DNA of 64,000 nucleotides from a virus (Duplodnaviria > Heunggongvirae > Uroviricota > Caudoviricetes): IMG/VR virus record IMGVR_UViG_3300021440_000001, one strand, 5' to 3'. The translations under genes and the position numbers were made by a program. Every line of letters begins with the position of its first letter. The first letter of the stretch is position 1. Under the pieces are notes generated by a model. It did not search any database, was not told the origin of the DNA, and worked only from the letters and a program-made list of their open reading frames with translations. Below, piece by piece: positions 4,668 to 29,944 of the stretch.

Positions 4668-5366
4668 ATGGACTGCATCACATACACCCGCGTATCGACC
4701 CGTGAACAAGGCGACAGTCGCAATGGACTAGAGGCGCAGACCGCCAGACTAGAACAGTTCGCATCCTCTAGCGGGGTGAATATCCTTGCTACCTATGAAG
4801 AGGTAGCTAGCGGGGCTAAGGGCGTGGACGGCAGGCCCGTCCTAGCGGCTGCACTGGCCCATGCTAAGCGGTCTAAGGCCGTCCTGCTGGTGGCGAAGCT
4901 AGACCGGCTAAGCCGCTCAGTGGAGTTCATAGCGGGCCTAATGAACCGGCAAGTACGCTTTGCCAGTGCAGAGGATGGCTTACACTGTGAGCCGTTTATG
5001 CTGCACCTAAAAGCGATGCTTGCCGAGCAAGAACGGCGAATGGTTAGTGAGCGCACTAAGGCGGCGCTGCAGGCTAAGAAAGCACGCGGTGAACCCCTCG
5101 GAGTACACACGCACAAGACACCCCTAGATACTAGCGCTAGGGCTGGCCTAGCGTCCGCTGCTGCTGTGGCTGCTGTGGCCGATCAGTTCGCGCTGCGGCT
5201 GGCTAGCGTGGTGTTACCACTGCGACGCACTGGGATGACGACAGCACAAATAGCTACAACCCTGAACACACAAGGTGTGTATACTGCGAGGGGCGGGCAG
5301 TGGCACGGGTCAACCGTGAACAATATCCTGAAAAGACTGACACAAATGGGGCAAATTGTAGGATAA
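4668..5366 (+). CDS. small serine recombinase (resolvase/invertase family) with C-terminal HTH
   Basis: N-terminal YTRVSTREQ (catalytic Ser), LVAKLDRLSRS, ...ERTKAAL motifs. Confidence 0.8.
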   Translation: MDCITYTRVSTREQGDSRNGLEAQTARLEQFASSSGVNILATYEEVASGAKGVDGRPVLAAALAHAKRSKAVLLVAKLDRLSRSVEFIAGLMNRQVRFASAEDGLHCEPFMLHLKAMLAEQERRMVSERTKAALQAKKARGEPLGVHTHKTPLDTSARAGLASAAAVAAVADQFALRLASVVLPLRRTGMTTAQIATTLNTQGVYTARGGQWHGSTVNNILKRLTQMGQIVG

Positions 5367-22247: not shown

Positions 22248-22400
22248 GGAAGCGCCATAACTGCATCAAGGGCGTTGTGCTCAGCTTGGCACAAAAGCTG
22301 TGGAACGAGCGGACCAAGACCACTAGCCCTGTGCTTGCAACGCACGACACGGATGCACCGATTGTACGGTGTACTTTCTACGTTCAAGAAAAGGAGAAGG

Positions 22401-24004
22401 ATGAGAGGCGTATTTGACATCGAAGCCAACGCACTTCTTGACCACACTACAATCGACTACTTGGCTAGCCCATTCAAGCTCAAGCCTACGTTCATGGTTT
22501 GGTGCTTGGTTGTTCAAGACATCGACACTGGAGCTGTGTACAGGTTTGTAGGTGACGAGGTTCGGACTGAATTTCCCCGCCTGCTGGCAAAGATGACGAC
22601 CATCATCGGCCACAACATCATAGACTATGACTTGCTGGTGCTAAAGCTCTGGCTCGGAATAGACTATGAAATCGGCGAGCAGTGCTACATCGACGGCAGA
22701 CCTGTTGAAATTATCGACACACTGGTTTTGTCCAAAGTGTTGAACCCAGACCGATACGGCGGACACTCTCTTGACGAGTGGGGTAAGCGCCTAGGACTCG
22801 ACAAGATCGACTGGCGTGCAAAAGCAATTGAGCTTGGGCTTATCCAGTACAACTCGCCAAAGGGTGCAGAGTTTGCCCAGTATCACCCAGAAATGCTTGT
22901 GTACAACGAGCGTGACGTTGCAGTTAACGCTAAACTCTATTTCAACCTTGTGGATGAAATGGGCAGTTGGAACTGGCAAGGCCCGTTTGTGCTTGAGCAG
23001 ATGACACGGGACATTATCACCCGACAGTCGCACAGAGGGTTCTGGTTCAACGCTGAACTCGCAGAGGCAAATGTCCGAGAACTTGACGCCAAGATGGAAG
23101 AGATTAGGCTGTTGGTCGAGCCGCTACTGCCGCCGAAGCCGATGGGGTTGACGAAGCTGAAAGGGTACATTCCTCCGAAGATTCAGTTCAAGAAGAATGG
23201 CGAGCCTTCTGCCGTTGTTTTGAAGTGGGTGGAGCGCCACGGGGGCTCGATTTGGGAGGAATCAGGGCACTGGTGGTACAAGGTCTACGACAAGCAGGGT
23301 AAGATGCCAATGCCAGCCGACGAGGCTGTTGTGACGCACGAGCCAGCAACTGTCAAGGACACTACCCACATCAAGGGGTGGCTTGTTGAACTCGGGTGGC
23401 GTCCTACGCAATACAAGGAGCGTGATATAACCTGTGACAGCAAGAAGAAAAAGCTCACACCAGATAAGTTTGCCGACACTGTTGAACGCTACGTAGAGCA
23501 AACGCTGTCTAGTCCATTCAAGCGTGACCGTTGCAACGAACTTGACGTGTCTGCTTCGAGACTCAGAGACAAGTTGCTTAAGCACGACCTGAAGAGGCCG
23601 CTGAAGGTCTACACCAATCCCACCATTACCGTGGGTATGGAAAAAGAAATCGACCCTGCGCTTCTTGAGCTTGCAGACCAGTTCCCGCATGCGAAGCTTG
23701 TGTCAGAGTACCTGACGTATGCTCACAGGCGTAACAGCATCCTGGGCGGAGGGTTTGATCCTGACGACCTAGACGATGATGACGAGTTCGCTGGTAAGGG
23801 TTTTATGGCCGCTGGGCGCATTGCGGAAGACGGCCGTATCCAGACCCCTGCGGACTCCTGCGGAGCTGGCACAAGCCGTTTTAAGCACCGTCTCGTGGCT
23901 AATGTTCCGCGTGTGACCAGTTTGTATGGCAGGAACATGCGGGCTCTCTTTGGAGTTGACAAGGATGACGGATTTCTGCAACTGGGTTACGACTTTGATT
24001 CGTT
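22401..24004 (+). CDS. DNA polymerase I family (T7 gp5-like), exon 1: 3'-5' exonuclease plus N-terminal polymerase region ending in motif A
   Basis: Exo I VFDIEANAL, YNERDV; ends ...LQLGYDFDSL (motif A DxSxxE.R interrupted); AAGGAGAAGG RBS. Confidence 0.8.
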
Positions 24005-24814
24005 AATGACTGGCGAATGTAAAACCTGTTGAATTGCTGGGACACCCTAACGTACAATGGCGAGGGCAATCAGCAGCGAAGACGTGAGCTACCTCTTATT
24101 TGAAAGGAGGTAGGTATGGAAAGAAAGACTGTGCGTTGGTCGCCGTCTTATGATGTTTACGAGGATGGCAGGGTTTGGAGCAGGCACACAGGGAGGTTAT
24201 TGAAGCCCTTCTTGTCCACACAATCTGACGAGTACTTGTCAGTGAAGCTGTGCGAAGACTGCGAAGAACGGACAATCAGTGTGCATAGGCTTGTAGCCGA
24301 GCACTTTGTCCCTAATCCTGACAACCTAGGAACTGTCAATCATAAAGACGGCAACAAACAGAACAACCATCGTAGTAACCTAGAGTGGATGACTCAAGGC
24401 GATAACAAGCGGCATGCGTTCCAAACCGGAGTGTCTGTTGCTTGGTGGCAAGGAGATACACACTCTAGAAGCACTTTCACCAACGAAGAAGTGCATGAGA
24501 TTTGCAGCCTGTTCCAAAGCGGTGTGAAGCCGCTGGACTTGGCGAAGTCCACGACGCTCTTGTACCAGAAGCTGTTTAGAATCTGGAACAGAGATAACTG
24601 GAAGTCGATTTCTAAAGACTATAGTTGGTAGCTCACGTAACGTTCAACGACTATCGAAACCACGCAGCAATGCGGAAGGGAGTAGAGTAGGAAGCAAGCC
24701 TATGGCTTCCGAAGTGGCAGGGGACGAAAGTCCATGATATAGTCTGAACACGCAGGAGACTGCGTGCGGAGGTTAAATCCTCGGGTGGTTGTTGCGAAGC
24801 CACTGAACAAATTG
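24005..24814 (+). other. group I intron in the DNA polymerase gene (carries an HNH ORF)
   Basis: exon ends in U, with P1 pairing ATTCGU/GCGAAU; intron ends in G; conserved core GACTATCGAAA...GAGTAGAGTAGGA...GATGATATAGTCYGA shared with the nrdA introns; spliced product gives DFDSL|EAKIEAH matching T7 DASGLELRCLAH. Confidence 0.7.
24116..24631 (+). CDS. intron-encoded HNH homing endonuclease (NUMOD-like N-terminus + HNH_3)
   Basis: VNHKDGNKQNNHRSNLEW; GAAAGGAGGTAGGT RBS inside the intron; paralog at 37487. Confidence 0.75.
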   Translation: MERKTVRWSPSYDVYEDGRVWSRHTGRLLKPFLSTQSDEYLSVKLCEDCEERTISVHRLVAEHFVPNPDNLGTVNHKDGNKQNNHRSNLEWMTQGDNKRHAFQTGVSVAWWQGDTHSRSTFTNEEVHEICSLFQSGVKPLDLAKSTTLLYQKLFRIWNRDNWKSISKDYSW

Positions 24815-25614
24815 TGGAAGCGAAGATCGAAGCCCACTACGTCTACCGCTATGCGGGAGGTCCGGAGTATGGGGTGAGTCTGACGGCTGAAAAACCGAAT
24901 GACTGCCATAGCGTTCTTGCGCGTAAGATCACGGGAATACTCGGACGTGAGTTTCCTCGGTCAACTGCGAAGAACGTCAAGTATGGGTGCAGCTACAATG
25001 CTCAACCAACGCGTGTGGCTAAGACGGTGGGCTGCGATCTGGATACAGGTCAGATCATCTTCGATGCGTTCTGGGAGCAGGCTAGCCCGCTGAAAGAACT
25101 CAAGGAAAAGATGCAGAAATACTGGGAAGGTCCGGGCCAGAAGAAGTTCCTCATGGGCATCGACAACCGAAAGTTGCCGATCCGCGCAAAAGGGAACGTC
25201 ATCAACACGGCATTCCAGTCTGCTGGCGTCATCTGTGCTAAGCGGGCGATGGTTATCCACGAAAAAATGTTGAAAGACGAGGGTTTGTGGGTTGACTTTT
25301 TCCGCGATGACTGGAAGAATAAGGACTTCTGCCAACAACTGATCGCCTACCATGATGAGGCGCAACTAGAGGTTCGCCGTAGCATGGTGACGTGGAAGAA
25401 GTTCAGTAGCGAAGCTGAGTGCAAGGCGTTCAAGAGCGACGACGGAAAGGTGTGGAGCGACCCTGTTCACAATGACAAGGGCTGGTTCCGTGGCTACTGT
25501 CGTGCTGGCGAGCTTGCAACAATCGCTGTAAGAGAGGCTGGACAACACTACAAACTTAACGTAGAATTGTCGGCTGGATACATGCTAGGCACCGACTGGG
25601 CTAGCTGCCACTAA
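24815..25614 (+). CDS. DNA polymerase exon 2 (motifs B and C, C-terminus)
   Basis: R..AKNVKYGCSYN (motif B), LIAYHDEAQLE (motif C HDE), C-terminal ...GTDWASCH matches T7 ...GPNWAICH. Confidence 0.8.
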
Positions 25615-26088: not shown

Positions 26089-26340
26089 CTTTCAGGAGAG
26101 AAAGACGTTAACATAGCTTTCTCTACTTGGATTCGCTTTCCAAAAGACTTCCCAAAGGGAGTTCTAAGTAGCGGCAGCGGCGACGTGCAGGTTCGTCGCA
26201 TCAAAGCACTGAAATTACTTGCATGGCTGAGAGAAAGAGGCTATACTGATGTAACATCAGAGCACATACGGGTGCAGCGGATTCAGTTCACAATGTTTGA
26301 AAAGGAGATTGCAAATGGGATTTTTGGGCAAGAGCCGTGA
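26089..26340 (+). CDS. possible small protein (TTG start)
   Basis: only open frame in the 26021-26314 gap; no ATG start. Confidence 0.2.
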   Translation, partial: LSGEKDVNIAFSTWIRFPKDFPKGVLSSGSGDVQVRRIKALKLLAWLRERGYTDVTSEHIRVQRIQFTMFEKEIANGIFGQEP

Positions 26341-26674
26341 CTTCAGCGTTCTGCGTGGCAAGGTTATCAAGGAAATTAAAGTGCAAGACGCCAACAAGAT
26401 CATCTTCTACACTGAAGACGGCAAGACGTATGAAATGTACCACGACCAAGAATGCTGCGAGGATGTCTATATTGAGTCGATTGTCGGCTACTTGGACGAC
26501 CTGATTGATTCCCCGATCCTTGTGGCCTCAAAGGAATCCCAAGAAGACCCAACATACCGCATCGGTACTTGGACCTTCTACAAGCTAGCTACTCGCCACG
26601 GCTACGTTGATATCCGCTGGAACGGCGATAGCAACGGCTTCTACAGTGAAGATGTCAGCTTCTATGAGGTGTGA
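26315..26674 (+). CDS. hypothetical protein (119 aa)
   Basis: AAAAGGAG RBS 7 nt before the ATG. Confidence 0.55.
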   Translation: MGFLGKSRDFSVLRGKVIKEIKVQDANKIIFYTEDGKTYEMYHDQECCEDVYIESIVGYLDDLIDSPILVASKESQEDPTYRIGTWTFYKLATRHGYVDIRWNGDSNGFYSEDVSFYEV

Positions 26675-26677
26675 GCG

Positions 26678-27469
26678 ATGCTAAAAGCTACGAGTATGGC
26701 GGGATGGGACATCCCTCTGAAGGTGTGGAAGTTCCCGTGTGGCGAAGTCGGCGTAAAGATTGAAAGCGGGTTCGCTAATGGTGAAGTGGAAGTGGCAGTG
26801 ACGCTGATGTGGGAGGGCAATGACGACCTGATTGCGCTTGGGCAGTTAGTCGATGCGCTGCGGCACGCGGGTGTTGAACGTATCTCACTGAACATTCCAT
26901 ACTTCCCCTATTCACGCCAAGACCGCCGCTGCAATTCCGGAGAGGGTCACGCCCTTAAAATGGTTGCCGCCTACATCAACAGTCTGAATTTCTCCACCGT
27001 CTACACAATGGACGCTCACAGCTATGTGCTTGAAGCTGTCGTCAACAACCTGCGGGTGACTGAACAAGAAGATTGTGCATTTATGCTGCCGAGCTTTGAT
27101 GTCTTTGTGGCCCCTGACGCAGGCGCCAGCAAGAAGATTTTCAAGCTGACTTCCACCTTTGAGGGTGCGGAAGTTCTTGTTGCTGACAAGAAGCGTGACG
27201 CTATTGGAAGGATAATTGAAACCCGCGTCAGCGGTGGAGAGTCCATTACCGGCAAGTCAGTGTGTGTTGTTGATGACTTATGCGACGGCGGCGCAACATT
27301 CGTTGAGCTTGGCAAGGTGCTTAAAAAGTACGAACCGGCCTCTCTCAACTTGTACGTGACACATGGGTTTTTCACGAAGGGTGTTGAAATTCTGACACCG
27401 TTCTACGAGACAATCTACGTCTCAAACTTGATGAACAACGCGGCAAAGCCGCATGTAAAGGAGATTTGA
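26678..27469 (+). CDS. ribose-phosphate pyrophosphokinase-like protein (Prs / candidate ADPR-PP synthetase Adps)
   Basis: PRPP-binding loop VVDDLCDGGATF, ...YSRQDRR...; 263 aa, shorter than cellular Prs. Confidence 0.7.
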   Translation: MLKATSMAGWDIPLKVWKFPCGEVGVKIESGFANGEVEVAVTLMWEGNDDLIALGQLVDALRHAGVERISLNIPYFPYSRQDRRCNSGEGHALKMVAAYINSLNFSTVYTMDAHSYVLEAVVNNLRVTEQEDCAFMLPSFDVFVAPDAGASKKIFKLTSTFEGAEVLVADKKRDAIGRIIETRVSGGESITGKSVCVVDDLCDGGATFVELGKVLKKYEPASLNLYVTHGFFTKGVEILTPFYETIYVSNLMNNAAKPHVKEI

Positions 27470-27470
27470 T

Positions 27471-29066
27471 TTGAAGAGCTTTCCACTGACCCAAGCCGAC
27501 TTCTACAAGCTGTCGCACAAAAAGTTCATGGTTGATGGCGTGACCAAGATTTACGCCAACTTCACGGCGCGTTCTGGCAAGTATGCAAAGTGGGCAGATG
27601 ACAGAAAGCGAGTAGTGTTTGCTGGCCTTCAGCACTTCATCAAAGACTTCTTGATTGAAGAGTGGAATAGGGAGTTCTTCAAGAAGCCAAAAGCGCAGGT
27701 GATTGCCAAATTCAAGCGACGCGTTGAAACGTCTCTTGGCGTTGGCTCAGTGAGCATGGCCCACTTTGAAGCTCTGCATGACCTTGGCTACCTGCCACTG
27801 AAGATCAAGGCTCTGCCTGAAGGCTCGAAGGTTCCTTTCAAGGTTCCTCTACTGACCGTTGTCAACACTGACGACGATTTTGCATGGCTTGTCACGTACA
27901 TCGAAACTGCCCTTTCGACGGAGCTGTGGGCTACTACCACTGCTGCGACCACTGCGTACCAGTTTCTGACTCTGTGCAACAGTTTTGCAGACCAAACAGT
28001 AGGCAACCGCAATCATGTCATGTTCCAGTGTCATGACTTCTCTGCGCGTGGTGTCATCGGTCGCAATGGTGGGGCTCTAACGGGTCTTGGACATTTGATG
28101 TCGTTCAATGGCACAGATACTATCGCGGCAATCGACCTTGTTGAAGACTATTACAACGTGGATGCCAGCAAGTATTTCATTGCTGCATCGGTTCCTGCCA
28201 GTGAGCACAGCGTAACGTCGCTCGGAAGCAGCGTTCTCGGAGAGTTCGGTACTATCAAGAGCTGGATAACCGAGGCCTACCCGACAGGTATTGTATCAGT
28301 TGTGTCGGATACCTACGATTATTGGCGTGTTCTCACCAAGTACCTACCACTGATGAAGGACGATATCAAGGCACGTAAGCCGAACGAGCTTGGACTTGCA
28401 AAGGTTGTTGTGCGCCCTGACAGCGGCGAGCCTGCACGAGTCATTGCTGGATATCGACCCGACGAGTTTTACTCTGAAGTGAAAAACATTCAGCGAGACG
28501 GCTGGACTGAGTGTGTAAGCGTGTTCACTTGCAAGAGCACTGGAAAGCAGTTGACTGAAGATGAAATCAAGGGTAGTATTGAGATTCTGTGGGAGACATT
28601 TGGTGGCACGACTAACAAGTTTGGCTACCGTGAACTCGACCCGTGCATCGGTTTGATCTACGGCGACAGCATCACGCTGGAGCGGGCTGACGATATATTC
28701 CGCCGATTGCAGCAGCGAGGGTTTGCAAGTAGCAACGTCGTGTTTGGCGTAGGCTCTTACACATACCAGATGGTCAGCCGCGACACGCTTGGCATGGCAG
28801 TTAAAGCCACTGCTGCTGTTGTTGACGGCGAGCTGAAGGCACTATTCAAAAACCCGGCGACTGACGACGGGACGAAGAAGTCTGCACGCGGCCTCATGCG
28901 CGTCGAGCTGATCGACGGTGAGTACGTGATGTTTGACCGCCAAACCGAGGCTCAGGAGGCTTCTGGTGAGCTTCGAACTGTGTTTGAAGACGGCGTGCTG
29001 TTGATTGACGAAACATTTGAGGTCATCCGGGCACGGGTCCAAGACATCGTGCTTGAAAAGGCGTAA
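27471..29066 (+). CDS. nicotinamide phosphoribosyltransferase-like protein (NAMPT/NadV family; candidate Namat)
   Basis: 531 aa; type II PRTase-like with GTDT..., ...YGDSIT... regions; TTG start overlapping the upstream stop. Confidence 0.7.
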   Translation: MKSFPLTQADFYKLSHKKFMVDGVTKIYANFTARSGKYAKWADDRKRVVFAGLQHFIKDFLIEEWNREFFKKPKAQVIAKFKRRVETSLGVGSVSMAHFEALHDLGYLPLKIKALPEGSKVPFKVPLLTVVNTDDDFAWLVTYIETALSTELWATTTAATTAYQFLTLCNSFADQTVGNRNHVMFQCHDFSARGVIGRNGGALTGLGHLMSFNGTDTIAAIDLVEDYYNVDASKYFIAASVPASEHSVTSLGSSVLGEFGTIKSWITEAYPTGIVSVVSDTYDYWRVLTKYLPLMKDDIKARKPNELGLAKVVVRPDSGEPARVIAGYRPDEFYSEVKNIQRDGWTECVSVFTCKSTGKQLTEDEIKGSIEILWETFGGTTNKFGYRELDPCIGLIYGDSITLERADDIFRRLQQRGFASSNVVFGVGSYTYQMVSRDTLGMAVKATAAVVDGELKALFKNPATDDGTKKSARGLMRVELIDGEYVMFDRQTEAQEASGELRTVFEDGVLLIDETFEVIRARVQDIVLEKA

Positions 29067-29081
29067 CCGGCTAAGGAAACT

Positions 29082-29342
29082 ATGATAAACTACGCACTTG
29101 CTTTCACCTCTTCATTCATTTTCGTTGCGTTAAAGTCGTGGCAGCAATTGAATGTAGTCCACAAGAAATACTGGTGGATTCTTCCGACAAGCATGGCGAT
29201 GGCGTTGTGCGAAGTTTATGTAGTTGCAACAGTGGCAAAGAATGGCTGGGGCATTATTGCCCTGGCTATTGGCCTAGGAGCTGGACTTGGCTCAATGCTT
29301 GCAACATGGTTACATAGTAAGTTAACAGCGAAAGGAGAGTAA
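29082..29342 (+). CDS. small two-TM membrane protein
   Basis: two hydrophobic helices. Confidence 0.45.
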   Translation: MINYALAFTSSFIFVALKSWQQLNVVHKKYWWILPTSMAMALCEVYVVATVAKNGWGIIALAIGLGAGLGSMLATWLHSKLTAKGE

Positions 29343-29944
29343 TGGTGGCTAAACCCCAGTCAATCCAGGCTCAACTCGGCTTTGGAGAAGTCGATAAGAG
29401 CGCATTTTTTGCACTGCCAAAGCCAAAAATAATTGGGCTGTCAGGTAAAGCGCGAAGCGGCAAAGACACTGCTGCTGGCATGCTTGAGGCGGCATTCAAC
29501 GCAAAAACAGTTGCATTCGCCGACCCTATTCGAGACGCAATGCGCGCCATTTTTGGCTTCAATGAGGCTCACTTCAATGGGAGTCTGAAAGAAGTTGTCG
29601 TTCCATGGATCGGCAAATCTCCACGCCAACTGATGCAAACACTCGGAACCGAGTGGGGTCGCAACATCGTAAACAACGATCTATGGCGAACTCTTGCGGC
29701 TCGGAAAATCGAACAAATCACTGACAGCTTTGACCACGCAGTTGTGACTGATGTGCGGTTTGAAAACGAAGCCGAAATGATCCGCTCTATGGGTGGCCGC
29801 GTCTGGCACATCGTTCGAGACAACATTCCGACCGTCAGCGCACATGCTAGCGAACGTGGCATTGATGTTCACGCCGGTGACGTTATCATTTACAACAACG
29901 GGACGATGGAAGACTTGTTAGACTCTGTGTGTGGTAACTTCTGA
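29342..29944 (+). CDS. deoxynucleoside monophosphate kinase (T4 gp1-like)
   Basis: P-loop IIGLSGKARSGKDT resembles T4 gp1 LIFLSGVKRSGKDT. Confidence 0.65.
   Translation: MVAKPQSIQAQLGFGEVDKSAFFALPKPKIIGLSGKARSGKDTAAGMLEAAFNAKTVAFADPIRDAMRAIFGFNEAHFNGSLKEVVVPWIGKSPRQLMQTLGTEWGRNIVNNDLWRTLAARKIEQITDSFDHAVVTDVRFENEAEMIRSMGGRVWHIVRDNIPTVSAHASERGIDVHAGDVIIYNNGTMEDLLDSVCGNF

Follow-up and report, generated by a model that had tools for sequence, protein, structure and literature searches.

NARP1 rebuilds NAD+ from ADP-ribose (ADPR) and nicotinamide against NAD+-depleting bacterial immunity; the pathway has already been described and structurally dissected, and is present in about 4.3% of sequenced phages. 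Its core consists of an ADP-ribose pyrophosphokinase (Adps) of the Prs fold and a nicotinamide ADP-ribose transferase (Namat) of the Nampt fold, encoded in this order in a two-gene operon in SPbetaL1, Bas63, FADO, and ICP1 (NrsAB). The same core is found in NARP1-AP, together with a Macro-domain phosphatase (Adpp), and in RyDEP-extended NARP1. NARP2, formed in KVP40 by NadV (Nampt) and NatV (Nmnat-Nudix), likewise rebuilds NAD+ in infected cells via a Nampt-fold enzyme but requires an Nmnat. NARP3 consists of a PnuC-like transporter and a NadR-like enzyme.

Here we examined a 64,000-nt stretch of DNA (the window) from an uncultured tailed phage whose genome is about 80.8 kb, with 16.8 kb lying outside the window. 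The first-pass annotation had described Prs-like and Nampt-like neighbors at positions 26678 to 29066, and both ORFs were found there on the + strand. Our results indicate that these two genes very probably form a NARP1 operon, with substrates and products predicted by homology. The genes, their ribosome-binding sequence, and their neighbors are listed below.

26678 to 27469, + strand: putative adps-like gene, ATG start, 263 aa, predicted ADP-ribose pyrophosphokinase of the Prs fold.
27471 to 29066, + strand: putative namat-like gene, TTG start, 531 aa, predicted nicotinamide ADP-ribose transferase of the Nampt fold.
27458 to 27463, + strand: Shine-Dalgarno sequence AAGGAG for the namat-like gene, within the 3' end of the adps-like gene and 7 nt before the TTG at 27471.
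26315 to 26674, + strand: upstream neighbor encoding a DUF7448 protein (PF24240, E = 1e-26), context only.
29342 to 29944, + strand: downstream neighbor encoding a dNMP kinase (PF21448, E = 2.6e-33), context only.

The two genes have the same order as in the known NARP1 operons. A single base separates the TGA of the first gene (27467 to 27469) from the TTG of the second (27471), and this spacing, with AAGGAG 7 nt upstream of the TTG, bears out the translational coupling proposed earlier. The TTG was taken as the start of the 531-aa protein because the nicotinamide-pocket residues Asp10 and Tyr12 would otherwise be lost. Purifying selection is strong on both genes, with dN/dS values of 0.08 to 0.09 for the adps-like gene and 0.03 to 0.06 for the namat-like gene. 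A promoter and terminator scan of the region gave signals that were not above those of shuffled sequences.

The dNMP kinase gene lies two genes downstream of the pair, and RNR and ThyX are encoded elsewhere in the window. This raises the possibility that the Prs-like gene is a source of PRPP in a nucleotide-supply module (ThyX, RNR, and dNMP kinase), and that it stands beside the Nampt-like gene by chance. We consider this extremely unlikely in view of the 1-nt gap and shared ribosome-binding arrangement, the conservation of the pair as a unit in every relative examined, the Adps-type signatures of the Prs-like protein described below, and the existence of fused Adps-Namat proteins, as indicated by the phrog_12872 profile. 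The order Adps, Namat, small ORF, dNMP kinase is conserved in the relatives L014 and L118/L119. The small ORF, which encodes a membrane-like protein of 86 aa, was considered as a PnuC-like candidate and rejected, as it displayed only a weak match to a holin PHROG (E = 3e-5); its position is taken by unrelated ORFs in the relatives. The DUF7448 gene abuts Adps here and in L117, is truncated in L118, and is not called in L014. We rejected it as a NARP1 accessory, as no Adps or Namat gene was nearby in 4/4 other sampled phage contexts. A megablast search of the region against INPHARED gave no match, and a tblastn search with the 584-aa ORF at the right end of the window found nothing.

By name, the two proteins suggest a different pathway. 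In a conventional salvage route, a streamlined PRPP synthetase and NadV/Nampt would produce NMN, and a host NadR, NadD, or PncC route would complete NAD+. Database names and Pfam and NCBIfam matches do read Prs and Nampt, both for the 263-aa protein (Pribosyltran_N, E = 1.4e-14; Pribosyltran, E = 1.4e-6; TIGR01251, E = 1.3e-33; phrog_619, E = 7e-75) and for the 531-aa protein (NAPRTase, E = 8.8e-36; NF006629, E = 6e-151; phrog_448, E = 1e-180), and these values put both family assignments well outside chance. The models phrog_619, phrog_448, and NF006629 separate Adps from Prs and Namat from Nampt poorly, and only phrog_15800, phrog_12872, and TIGR01251 are informative. With the general Prs model TIGR01251, the 263-aa protein scored 116 bits, marginally passing the cut-off of 113, a point in favor of salvage; the Adps of EC6 (the genus of Bas63) passes it as well. 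Validated Adps give the same marginal scores (106, 96.5, and 125.8 bits), compared with 422.7 bits for E. coli Prs. None of the NCBIfam Prs equivalog or subfamily cut-offs was reached by the 263-aa protein, the best specific model giving 99.5 bits where 297 is required. We also built an HMM from four reference Adps, with which it scored 155 bits and Prs 83 to 100 bits.

In a neighbor-joining tree, the 263-aa protein, the four reference Adps, and 39 metagenomic homologs were split from 14 Prs in 100/100 bootstraps, with the 263-aa protein bracketed by SPbetaL1/FADO and ICP1. This tree and that of Namat, likewise neighbor-joining, are built from modest samples; the 14 Prs represent 7 phyla and include divergent plasmid paralogs. 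The diverse Prs were drawn from PLSDB records, and a scan of genome contigs gave only gammaproteobacterial Prs. EC6 stands in for Bas63, which belongs to the same genus. The identity of the 263-aa protein to each validated Adps is only 27 to 30%, barely above its 25% identity to E. coli Prs, so that profiles, the tree, and signature positions carry the assignment.

Two of the signature positions discussed below are located as follows.

27272 to 27301, + strand: PP loop DDLCDGGATF (aa 199 to 208), Adps-type, sharing Cys and Phe with ICP1.
27188 to 27190, + strand: codon of Lys171, by alignment the counterpart of the catalytic Lys of ICP1 (K185) and SPbetaL1 (K162).

The 263-aa protein resembles class I Prs/PRPS in its fold, its Arg/His/Asp acceptor-site residues, its DD motif, and its catalytic-loop Lys, and differs at both ends. 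Prs carries 13 to 20 more residues at the N terminus, which is short and Adps-like here, and approximately 30 more at the C terminus, comprising alpha11-12 with filament and allosteric elements. Only 34 residues follow His229, compared with 61 to 73 in canonical Prs and 38 to 51 in the reference Adps, so that the alpha11-12 module is missing; its loss is a defining signature of Adps (PMC13586617). The Prs motifs YFG, LHA, PDxGG, and DTGGTL are replaced by YFP, AHS, PDAGA, and DGGATF. The last of these lies in the loop quoted in the first-pass annotation, VVDDLCDGGATF, which we identified as residues 197 to 208. The corresponding PP loops are DDICDGAASF in ICP1, DDICDGGRTF in EC6, and DDMIDTGGTL in Prs. 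All 5 Adps references and all 39 metagenomic homologs have Phe following Thr/Ser, compared with 0/14 Prs, and the remodeled loop is conserved across Adps (Cys215-Ser220 followed by Phe221 in ICP1 [PMC13586617]).

A catalytic role of the hairpin Lys has been reported (PMC13586617; bioRxiv 2024.02.11.579819). Along with Lys171, the acceptor residues Arg80, His114, Asp147, Asp199, Asp200, and Asp203 are kept (R87, H121, D161, D212, D213, and D216 in ICP1). These residues are common to Prs and are therefore necessary for Adps but not discriminating. The catalytic hairpin is one residue shorter than in the NARP1 references, as in Prs. Phe19 corresponds to Phe18 of ICP1 and is retained, whereas Cys85 occupies the position of Phe92, the contact with the adenine of ADPR in ICP1; this position is also nonaromatic in SPbetaL1, FADO, and EC6, and the contact is thus not family-wide. 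A Namat homolog is present within ten genes for 97% of the Adps clade and rarely near cellular prs (bioRxiv 2024.02.11.579819); here it follows directly, after a gap of 1 nt. SPbetaL1 Adps itself gave no product in a Prs-activity assay (bioRxiv 2024.02.11.579819). Taken together, the comparisons support the view that the 263-aa protein resembles validated Adps and not cellular Prs, and we judge the salvage route to be quite improbable.

The 531-aa protein gave a corresponding result. In phmmer searches, it matched SPbetaL1 Namat (9W5X/9W5W) with 430 bits, Xcc Nampt with 180 bits, and human Nampt with 172 bits. Its AF2 model (pLDDT 94.4) had the Namat crystal structures 9W5X/9W5W as top Foldseek matches, with a TMt of 0.95. 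Scores with phrog_15800/12872 were 267/260, compared with 312 to 482/223 to 286 for Namat and 112/78 for Nampt. In the tree it grouped with Adps-linked Namat (100/100), apart from an outgroup of four phage Nampts (three from myophages, one of these from Vibrio phage CZ01 as a KVP40 relative, and that of phiCbK, whose gene adjoins a Nudix-domain gene). Identity is 42 to 47% to the Namat references and 28 to 31% to NARP2 Nampt. The Nampt-like catalytic core is intact, with Asp10, Tyr12, Phe190, Arg193, Asp216, Ala243, His246, Arg315, and Asp317 corresponding to D13, Y15, F189, R192, D215, A242, the catalytic His, R306, and D308 of SPbetaL1. The profile comparison proposed in the first-pass annotation, Adps/Namat against Prs/NadV, when run with controls, thus sides with Adps/Namat for both proteins.

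Two observations on the Namat side agree with salvage. Namat enzymes keep PRPP-to-NMN activity in vitro (bioRxiv 2024.02.11.579819; PMC12774641), and NadV of H. ducreyi (9KE8/9KEO), a stand-alone bacterial Nampt used as an NMN-forming enzyme (PMC6095924), is a sequence neighbor of the 531-aa protein (387 bits) and nests inside the Namat clade beside SPbetaL1/FADO with 90% bootstrap support. Membership in the clade alone is therefore no guarantee of a preference for ADPR-PP. The selectivity clamp and a variable region are located as follows.

27570 to 27611, + strand: selectivity-clamp loop (SCL) RSGKYAKWADDRKR (aa 34 to 47), with Lys37-Tyr38 of the Lys-plus-aromatic type.
28752 to 28784, + strand: selectivity-clamp helix (SCH) GSYTYQMVSRD (aa 428 to 438), by alignment.
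28455 to 28565, + strand: clade-variable insertion (aa approximately 329 to 365), a confidently predicted beta-hairpin (AF2).

The published rule for the SCL is either Arg or else Lys/Tyr followed by a stacking residue (PMC12774641). The segment R34-S-G-K37-Y38 fits this rule in the alignment and resembles those of FADO (NKY) and EC6 (DKW); the SCL of ICP1 Namat was left out of the comparison, as the annotation of isolate MW794182 is N-terminally short with a stop upstream. The loop of NARP2-type Nampt at this site is 7 residues shorter. The SCH carries the GS-aromatic-T-x-Q element of Namat, where Nampt has GGGLLQxxxRD. Compared with GS-X-phi-X-phi-X-phi-TRD, positions 1 to 6, 8, 10, and 11 fit, with aromatics at position 3 (Tyr430) and position 5 (Tyr432). 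The exceptions, which set the protein apart from the NARP1 references, are Met434 at position 7, where Tyr/Phe is usual and SPbetaL1 has the adenine-stacking Tyr396, and Ser436 for Thr (Thr398) at position 9. The replacement of one adenine-stacking aromatic by Met434 is a further point for salvage; in H. ducreyi NadV, however, all three clamp stackers are lost (Glu in the SCL, Gln and Arg in the SCH), whereas Lys37-Tyr38 and Tyr430 are kept here. The data support a resemblance of the 531-aa protein to validated Namat and not to the Nmnat-associated Nampt of NARP2.

Within NARP1, a clamp of the form Y-T-Y-Q-M with a longer SCL might relax specificity, so that the transferase would accept PRPP at a rate comparable to that for ADPR-PP or a different ADPR derivative. 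In 27/117 nearest homologs, SCH positions 5 and 7 are Tyr and Met, as they are here, the M-Y arrangement being commoner, and the predicted structured insertion of 44 aa is a second departure from the references, with strands at residues 333 to 342 and 345 to 354 (pLDDT about 89 to 96). Position 3 is nevertheless aromatic in 117/117 homologs and at least two aromatics are present among positions 3, 5, and 7 in 110/117, so that the Tyr/Met swap looks compensatory. Single clamp mutations in SPbetaL1 lowered activity only 1.3- to 1.7-fold (PMC12774641). The length at the insertion site is 4 aa in Nampt, 15 to 16 aa in SPbetaL1/FADO/ICP1, 44 aa here, and 92 aa in EC6; the site is thus hypervariable even among Adps-linked Namat homologs. 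Relaxed specificity is highly improbable on these grounds. A broader conjecture is that three linked differences (the aromatic moved from SCH position 7 to 5 with Ser for Thr, the longer SCL, and the 44-aa hairpin) define a Namat subclade with changed donor selectivity, for PRPP together with ADPR-PP or for a modified ADPR, and, separately, that the conserved order Adps, Namat, small ORF, dNMP kinase may place an antidote beside the very kinase triggering Kongming-type NAD+ depletion; we regard this as improbable.

Genome content agrees with the assignment to NARP1. As the first-pass annotation had stated, there is no NMN adenylyltransferase: no CTP_transf_like (Nmnat) or Nudix match was found among approximately 80 ORFs of the window (E ≤ 1e-3) or among the Pfam matches of the remaining 16.8 kb. 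This, and the position of the 531-aa protein outside the Nampt clade, distinguishes the pair from NARP2. Pfam matches across the approximately 80.8-kb genome included no Macro (PF01661), RyR (PF02026), PnuC, or NadR domain. Unlike NARP1-AP and RyDEP-extended NARP1, the operon thus has no Macro or RyR gene, and components of NARP3 were not detected. By analogy, the pair would not be expected to counter aRES-type cleavage of NAD+ to ADPR-1''-phosphate. The NARP1-type reading (Adps plus Namat) is supported by HMM contrasts, phylogeny, published structure-derived signatures, and the absence of Nmnat.

By homology with the systems of SPbetaL1, Bas63, FADO, and ICP1, we infer the following substrates, products, and anti-defense role. 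NAD+ would first be cleaved to ADP-ribose and nicotinamide by a NADase of the host, namely a SIR2, TIR, or SEFIR effector belonging to Thoeris, DSR, SIR2-HerA, or a similar system. The next step would yield ADPR-PP and AMP, and the 531-aa Namat would then exchange the pyrophosphate for nicotinamide, giving NAD+ directly with no NMN intermediate and no need for Nmnat.

The pair is very probably a divergent but typical copy of NARP1, a common and already described kind, and beyond a lesson for annotation the finding is ordinary. It contributes a NARP1 operon that is divergent and recurs in the environment, from a lineage of uncultured phages without a close relative in GenBank phage genomes, and demonstrates that the signatures published for Adps and Namat remain valid at 27 to 47% identity. 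As the H. ducreyi NadV control indicates, clade membership by itself is not enough for annotation. In practice, a phage "Prs + Nampt" pair should be annotated as Adps and Namat when four features are all present: a Prs without the C-terminal module, a PP loop ending in T-F, a Nampt with GS-aromatic-T-x-Q, and a genome without Nmnat.

The locus is very probably a functional NARP1 operon, in which an Adps-like gene (Prs fold) is followed by a Namat-like gene (Nampt fold).

26678-27469, + strand: adps-like gene, 263 aa, ATG start, ORF read from sequence
27458-27463, + strand: AAGGAG, 7 nt before the namat-like TTG
27471-29066, + strand: namat-like gene, 531 aa, TTG start, ORF read from sequence
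28455-28565, + strand: Namat insertion, aa ~329-365, confidently predicted beta-hairpin
29342-29944, + strand: dNMP kinase, two genes downstream of Namat

The two plus-strand ORFs, Prs-like and then Nampt-like, lie exactly as the first-pass annotation had described them. The adps-like gene begins 3 nt past the stop of an upstream DUF7448 gene, with GAGG 8 nt 5' of its ATG, and a single base separates its TGA (27467-27469) from the namat-like TTG. This TTG start is required, since without it the protein would lose Asp10 and Tyr12, its aligned counterparts of Asp13' and Tyr15' in the nicotinamide pocket of SPbetaL1 Namat. Profile searches were unambiguous, the first protein matching Pribosyltran_N, Pribosyltran, TIGR01251, and phrog_619 and the second NAPRTase, NF006629, and phrog_448.

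Pairwise identity does not decide between Adps and Prs for the first protein (27 to 30% to the reference Adps proteins of phages SPbetaL1, FADO, ICP1, and EC6; 25% to Escherichia coli Prs). On TIGR01251 it scored 116.2 bits, compared with 422.7 for E. coli Prs and 106, 96.5, and 125.8 for the Adps of SPbetaL1, FADO, and EC6, and it fell far under the cut-off on every Prs equivalog model. We also built one HMM from the four reference Adps and one Prs HMM; the window protein reached 155 bits on the former (Prs, 83 to 100) and 76 on the latter (Adps, 44 to 60; Prs, 640 to 670). A tree of 14 Prs from seven phyla, divergent plasmid paralogues included, together with the reference Adps and 39 metagenomic homologues, split Prs from all the others with 100/100 bootstrap support and placed the first protein between SPbetaL1/FADO and ICP1. 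With respect to the structure-derived signatures of the ICP1 Adps study (PMC13586617), the protein has a short N terminus and no C-terminal alpha11-12 module, its PP loop is DDLCDGGATF (ICP1, DDICDGAASF; Prs, DDMIDTGGTL), it carries YFP, AHS, and PDAGA where Prs has YFG, LHA, and PDxGG, and Lys171 is the aligned counterpart of the catalytic Lys. Cys85 occupies the ICP1 Phe92 site, which is non-aromatic in the other reference Adps too. Curated models, home-made profiles, phylogeny, and signatures all agree in pointing to an Adps.

Among solved structures, the second protein scored best against the SPbetaL1 Namat crystals 9W5X/9W5W (430 bits), with 170 to 180 bits for Xanthomonas and mammalian Nampt. 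Its AlphaFold2 model (pLDDT 94.4, pTM 0.93) was likewise closest to 9W5X/9W5W (TMt 0.95, 40 to 41% identity), followed by human NAMPT (26 to 27% identity). With four phage Nampt as outgroups (three from myophages, one of them a KVP40 relative, and that of phiCbK), Adps-linked Namat proteins, including that of the window, were split off at 100/100; identities were 45 to 47% to Namat and 28 to 31% to the outgroups. The catalytic core is intact in the alignment, and the phrog_15800 and phrog_12872 scores are Namat-like. Because phrog_12872 (547 positions) aligns to Adps over 10-222 and to the C-terminal half of Namat over 219-543, it suggests that other phages encode natural fusions of Adps and Namat.

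By the clamp-loop and clamp-helix criteria of PMC12774641, the loop RSGK37Y38AKW is of the Lys-plus-aromatic type of FADO and EC6; the equivalent loop of NARP2 Nampt is 7 residues shorter. The helix, GSYTYQMVSRD (consensus, GS-X-phi-X-phi-X-phi-TRD; Nampt, GGGLLQxxxRD), departs from the consensus in having Met434 at the adenine-stacking Tyr396 site of SPbetaL1 and Ser in place of Thr. Position 3 is aromatic in all 117 nearest homologues, and positions 5/7 are M-Y in 51, Y-M (the window type) in 27, and Y-Y in 13. The Y..M arrangement thus looks like a swap that retains two aromatic residues.

Haemophilus ducreyi NadV (PDB 9KE8/9KEO), an enzyme used for making NMN (PMC6095924), scored 387 bits against the second protein and fell inside the Namat clade, beside SPbetaL1/FADO, with 90% bootstrap support; it has Glu, Gln, and Arg at the three clamp sites, none aromatic. 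This NadV may have arisen from a Namat and gone back to using PRPP. Belonging to the clade thus does not suffice, and the case for Namat depends on the clamp residues and on the partner gene, both of which the window possesses. Run with controls, the HMM contrast of Adps/Namat with Prs/NadV put both proteins on the Adps/Namat side.

The insertion follows RPDSG[DE]P, a site that is hypervariable in the Namat clade (15 to 100 aa; 4 aa in Nampt), its length being 15 to 16 aa in SPbetaL1/FADO/ICP1, 44 in the window, 67 in Aeromonas phage 4_4572, and 92 in EC6.

The window is phage DNA, coding for a primase-helicase, family A DNA polymerase, RNR, ThyX, tape measure protein, and tail proteins. Megablast of the region against 50,697 GenBank phage records gave no match, and the primase-helicase has 49% identity to that of ~98-kb Pseudomonas phages. 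Metagenomic contigs with identical Adps and Namat proteins occur in several JGI, ENA, and SRA samples, the longest being 80.8 to 81.5 kb; by coordinate mapping, an 80,767-bp contig is a circularly permuted assembly relative to the window, and all of this contig except 16.8 kb lies within the window. Neither the roughly 80 window ORFs nor the precomputed Pfam hits for those other 16.8 kb yielded an Nmnat (CTP_transf_like), Nudix, Macro, RyR, PnuC, or NadR domain. NARP2, NARP1-AP, RyDEP-extended NARP1, and NARP3 are therefore ruled out, and the first-pass annotation's statement that NMN adenylyltransferase is missing is borne out; together with the HMM contrasts, trees, and signatures, this upholds its NARP1 interpretation.

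An HNH_3 endonuclease gene (24116-24631) splits the family A DNA polymerase gene (22275-25614, + strand) into ORFs at 22275-24032 and 24814-25614, and the related loci L014 and L118 have a single unbroken polymerase of 800 to 810 aa. There are several other HNH_3/AP2 genes, and the large subunit of RNR is likewise in two pieces. A 232-aa serine recombinase-like protein (4668-5366, + strand; Resolvase and partial Recombinase domains) is encoded in this otherwise lytic-looking genome. A 139-aa protein (2241-2660, + strand) has a YAcAr SLOG-family domain (PF10686, E 2e-11). Ligands of the SLOG superfamily are nucleotide- or ADPR-derived, and this protein, encoded 24 kb from the operon, could be relevant to NAD-derived immune signalling.

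The Adps-Namat pair is retained in relatives at 62 to 89% identity, under strong purifying selection (dN/dS, 0.08 to 0.09 for Adps and 0.03 to 0.06 for Namat). In an ICP1 isolate (MW794182; locus L097, 2501-3937), the annotated Namat (NrsB) gene begins at an internal GTG that has an in-frame stop 5' of it, and tblastn similarity starts ahead of that GTG; a frameshift or an error of annotation in the record could account for this. The DUF7448 gene (26315-26674, + strand), whose product is highly conserved (50 to 60% identity among hundreds of phage proteins from metagenomes), adjoins Adps here but was rejected as a NARP1 accessory, as no Adps/Namat lay near it in 4 of 4 other phage contexts sampled. 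The order Adps-Namat-small ORF-dNMP kinase is kept in relatives (loci L014, L118, and L119). Phage dNMP kinase triggers the Kongming system, which depletes NAD+ and is neutralised by SPbetaL1 NARP1 (PMC12774641), raising the speculative possibility that this neighbourhood is tied to countering Kongming.

NARP1 has been described before, its mechanism has been dissected, and about 4.3% of phages carry it; only the Y..M arrangement of the clamp and the conserved proximity to a dNMP kinase gene are mildly novel here. By analogy with experimentally characterised homologues (bioRxiv 2024.02.11.579819; PMC12774641; PMC13586617), the operon would rebuild NAD+ and thereby serve this phage in anti-defence.
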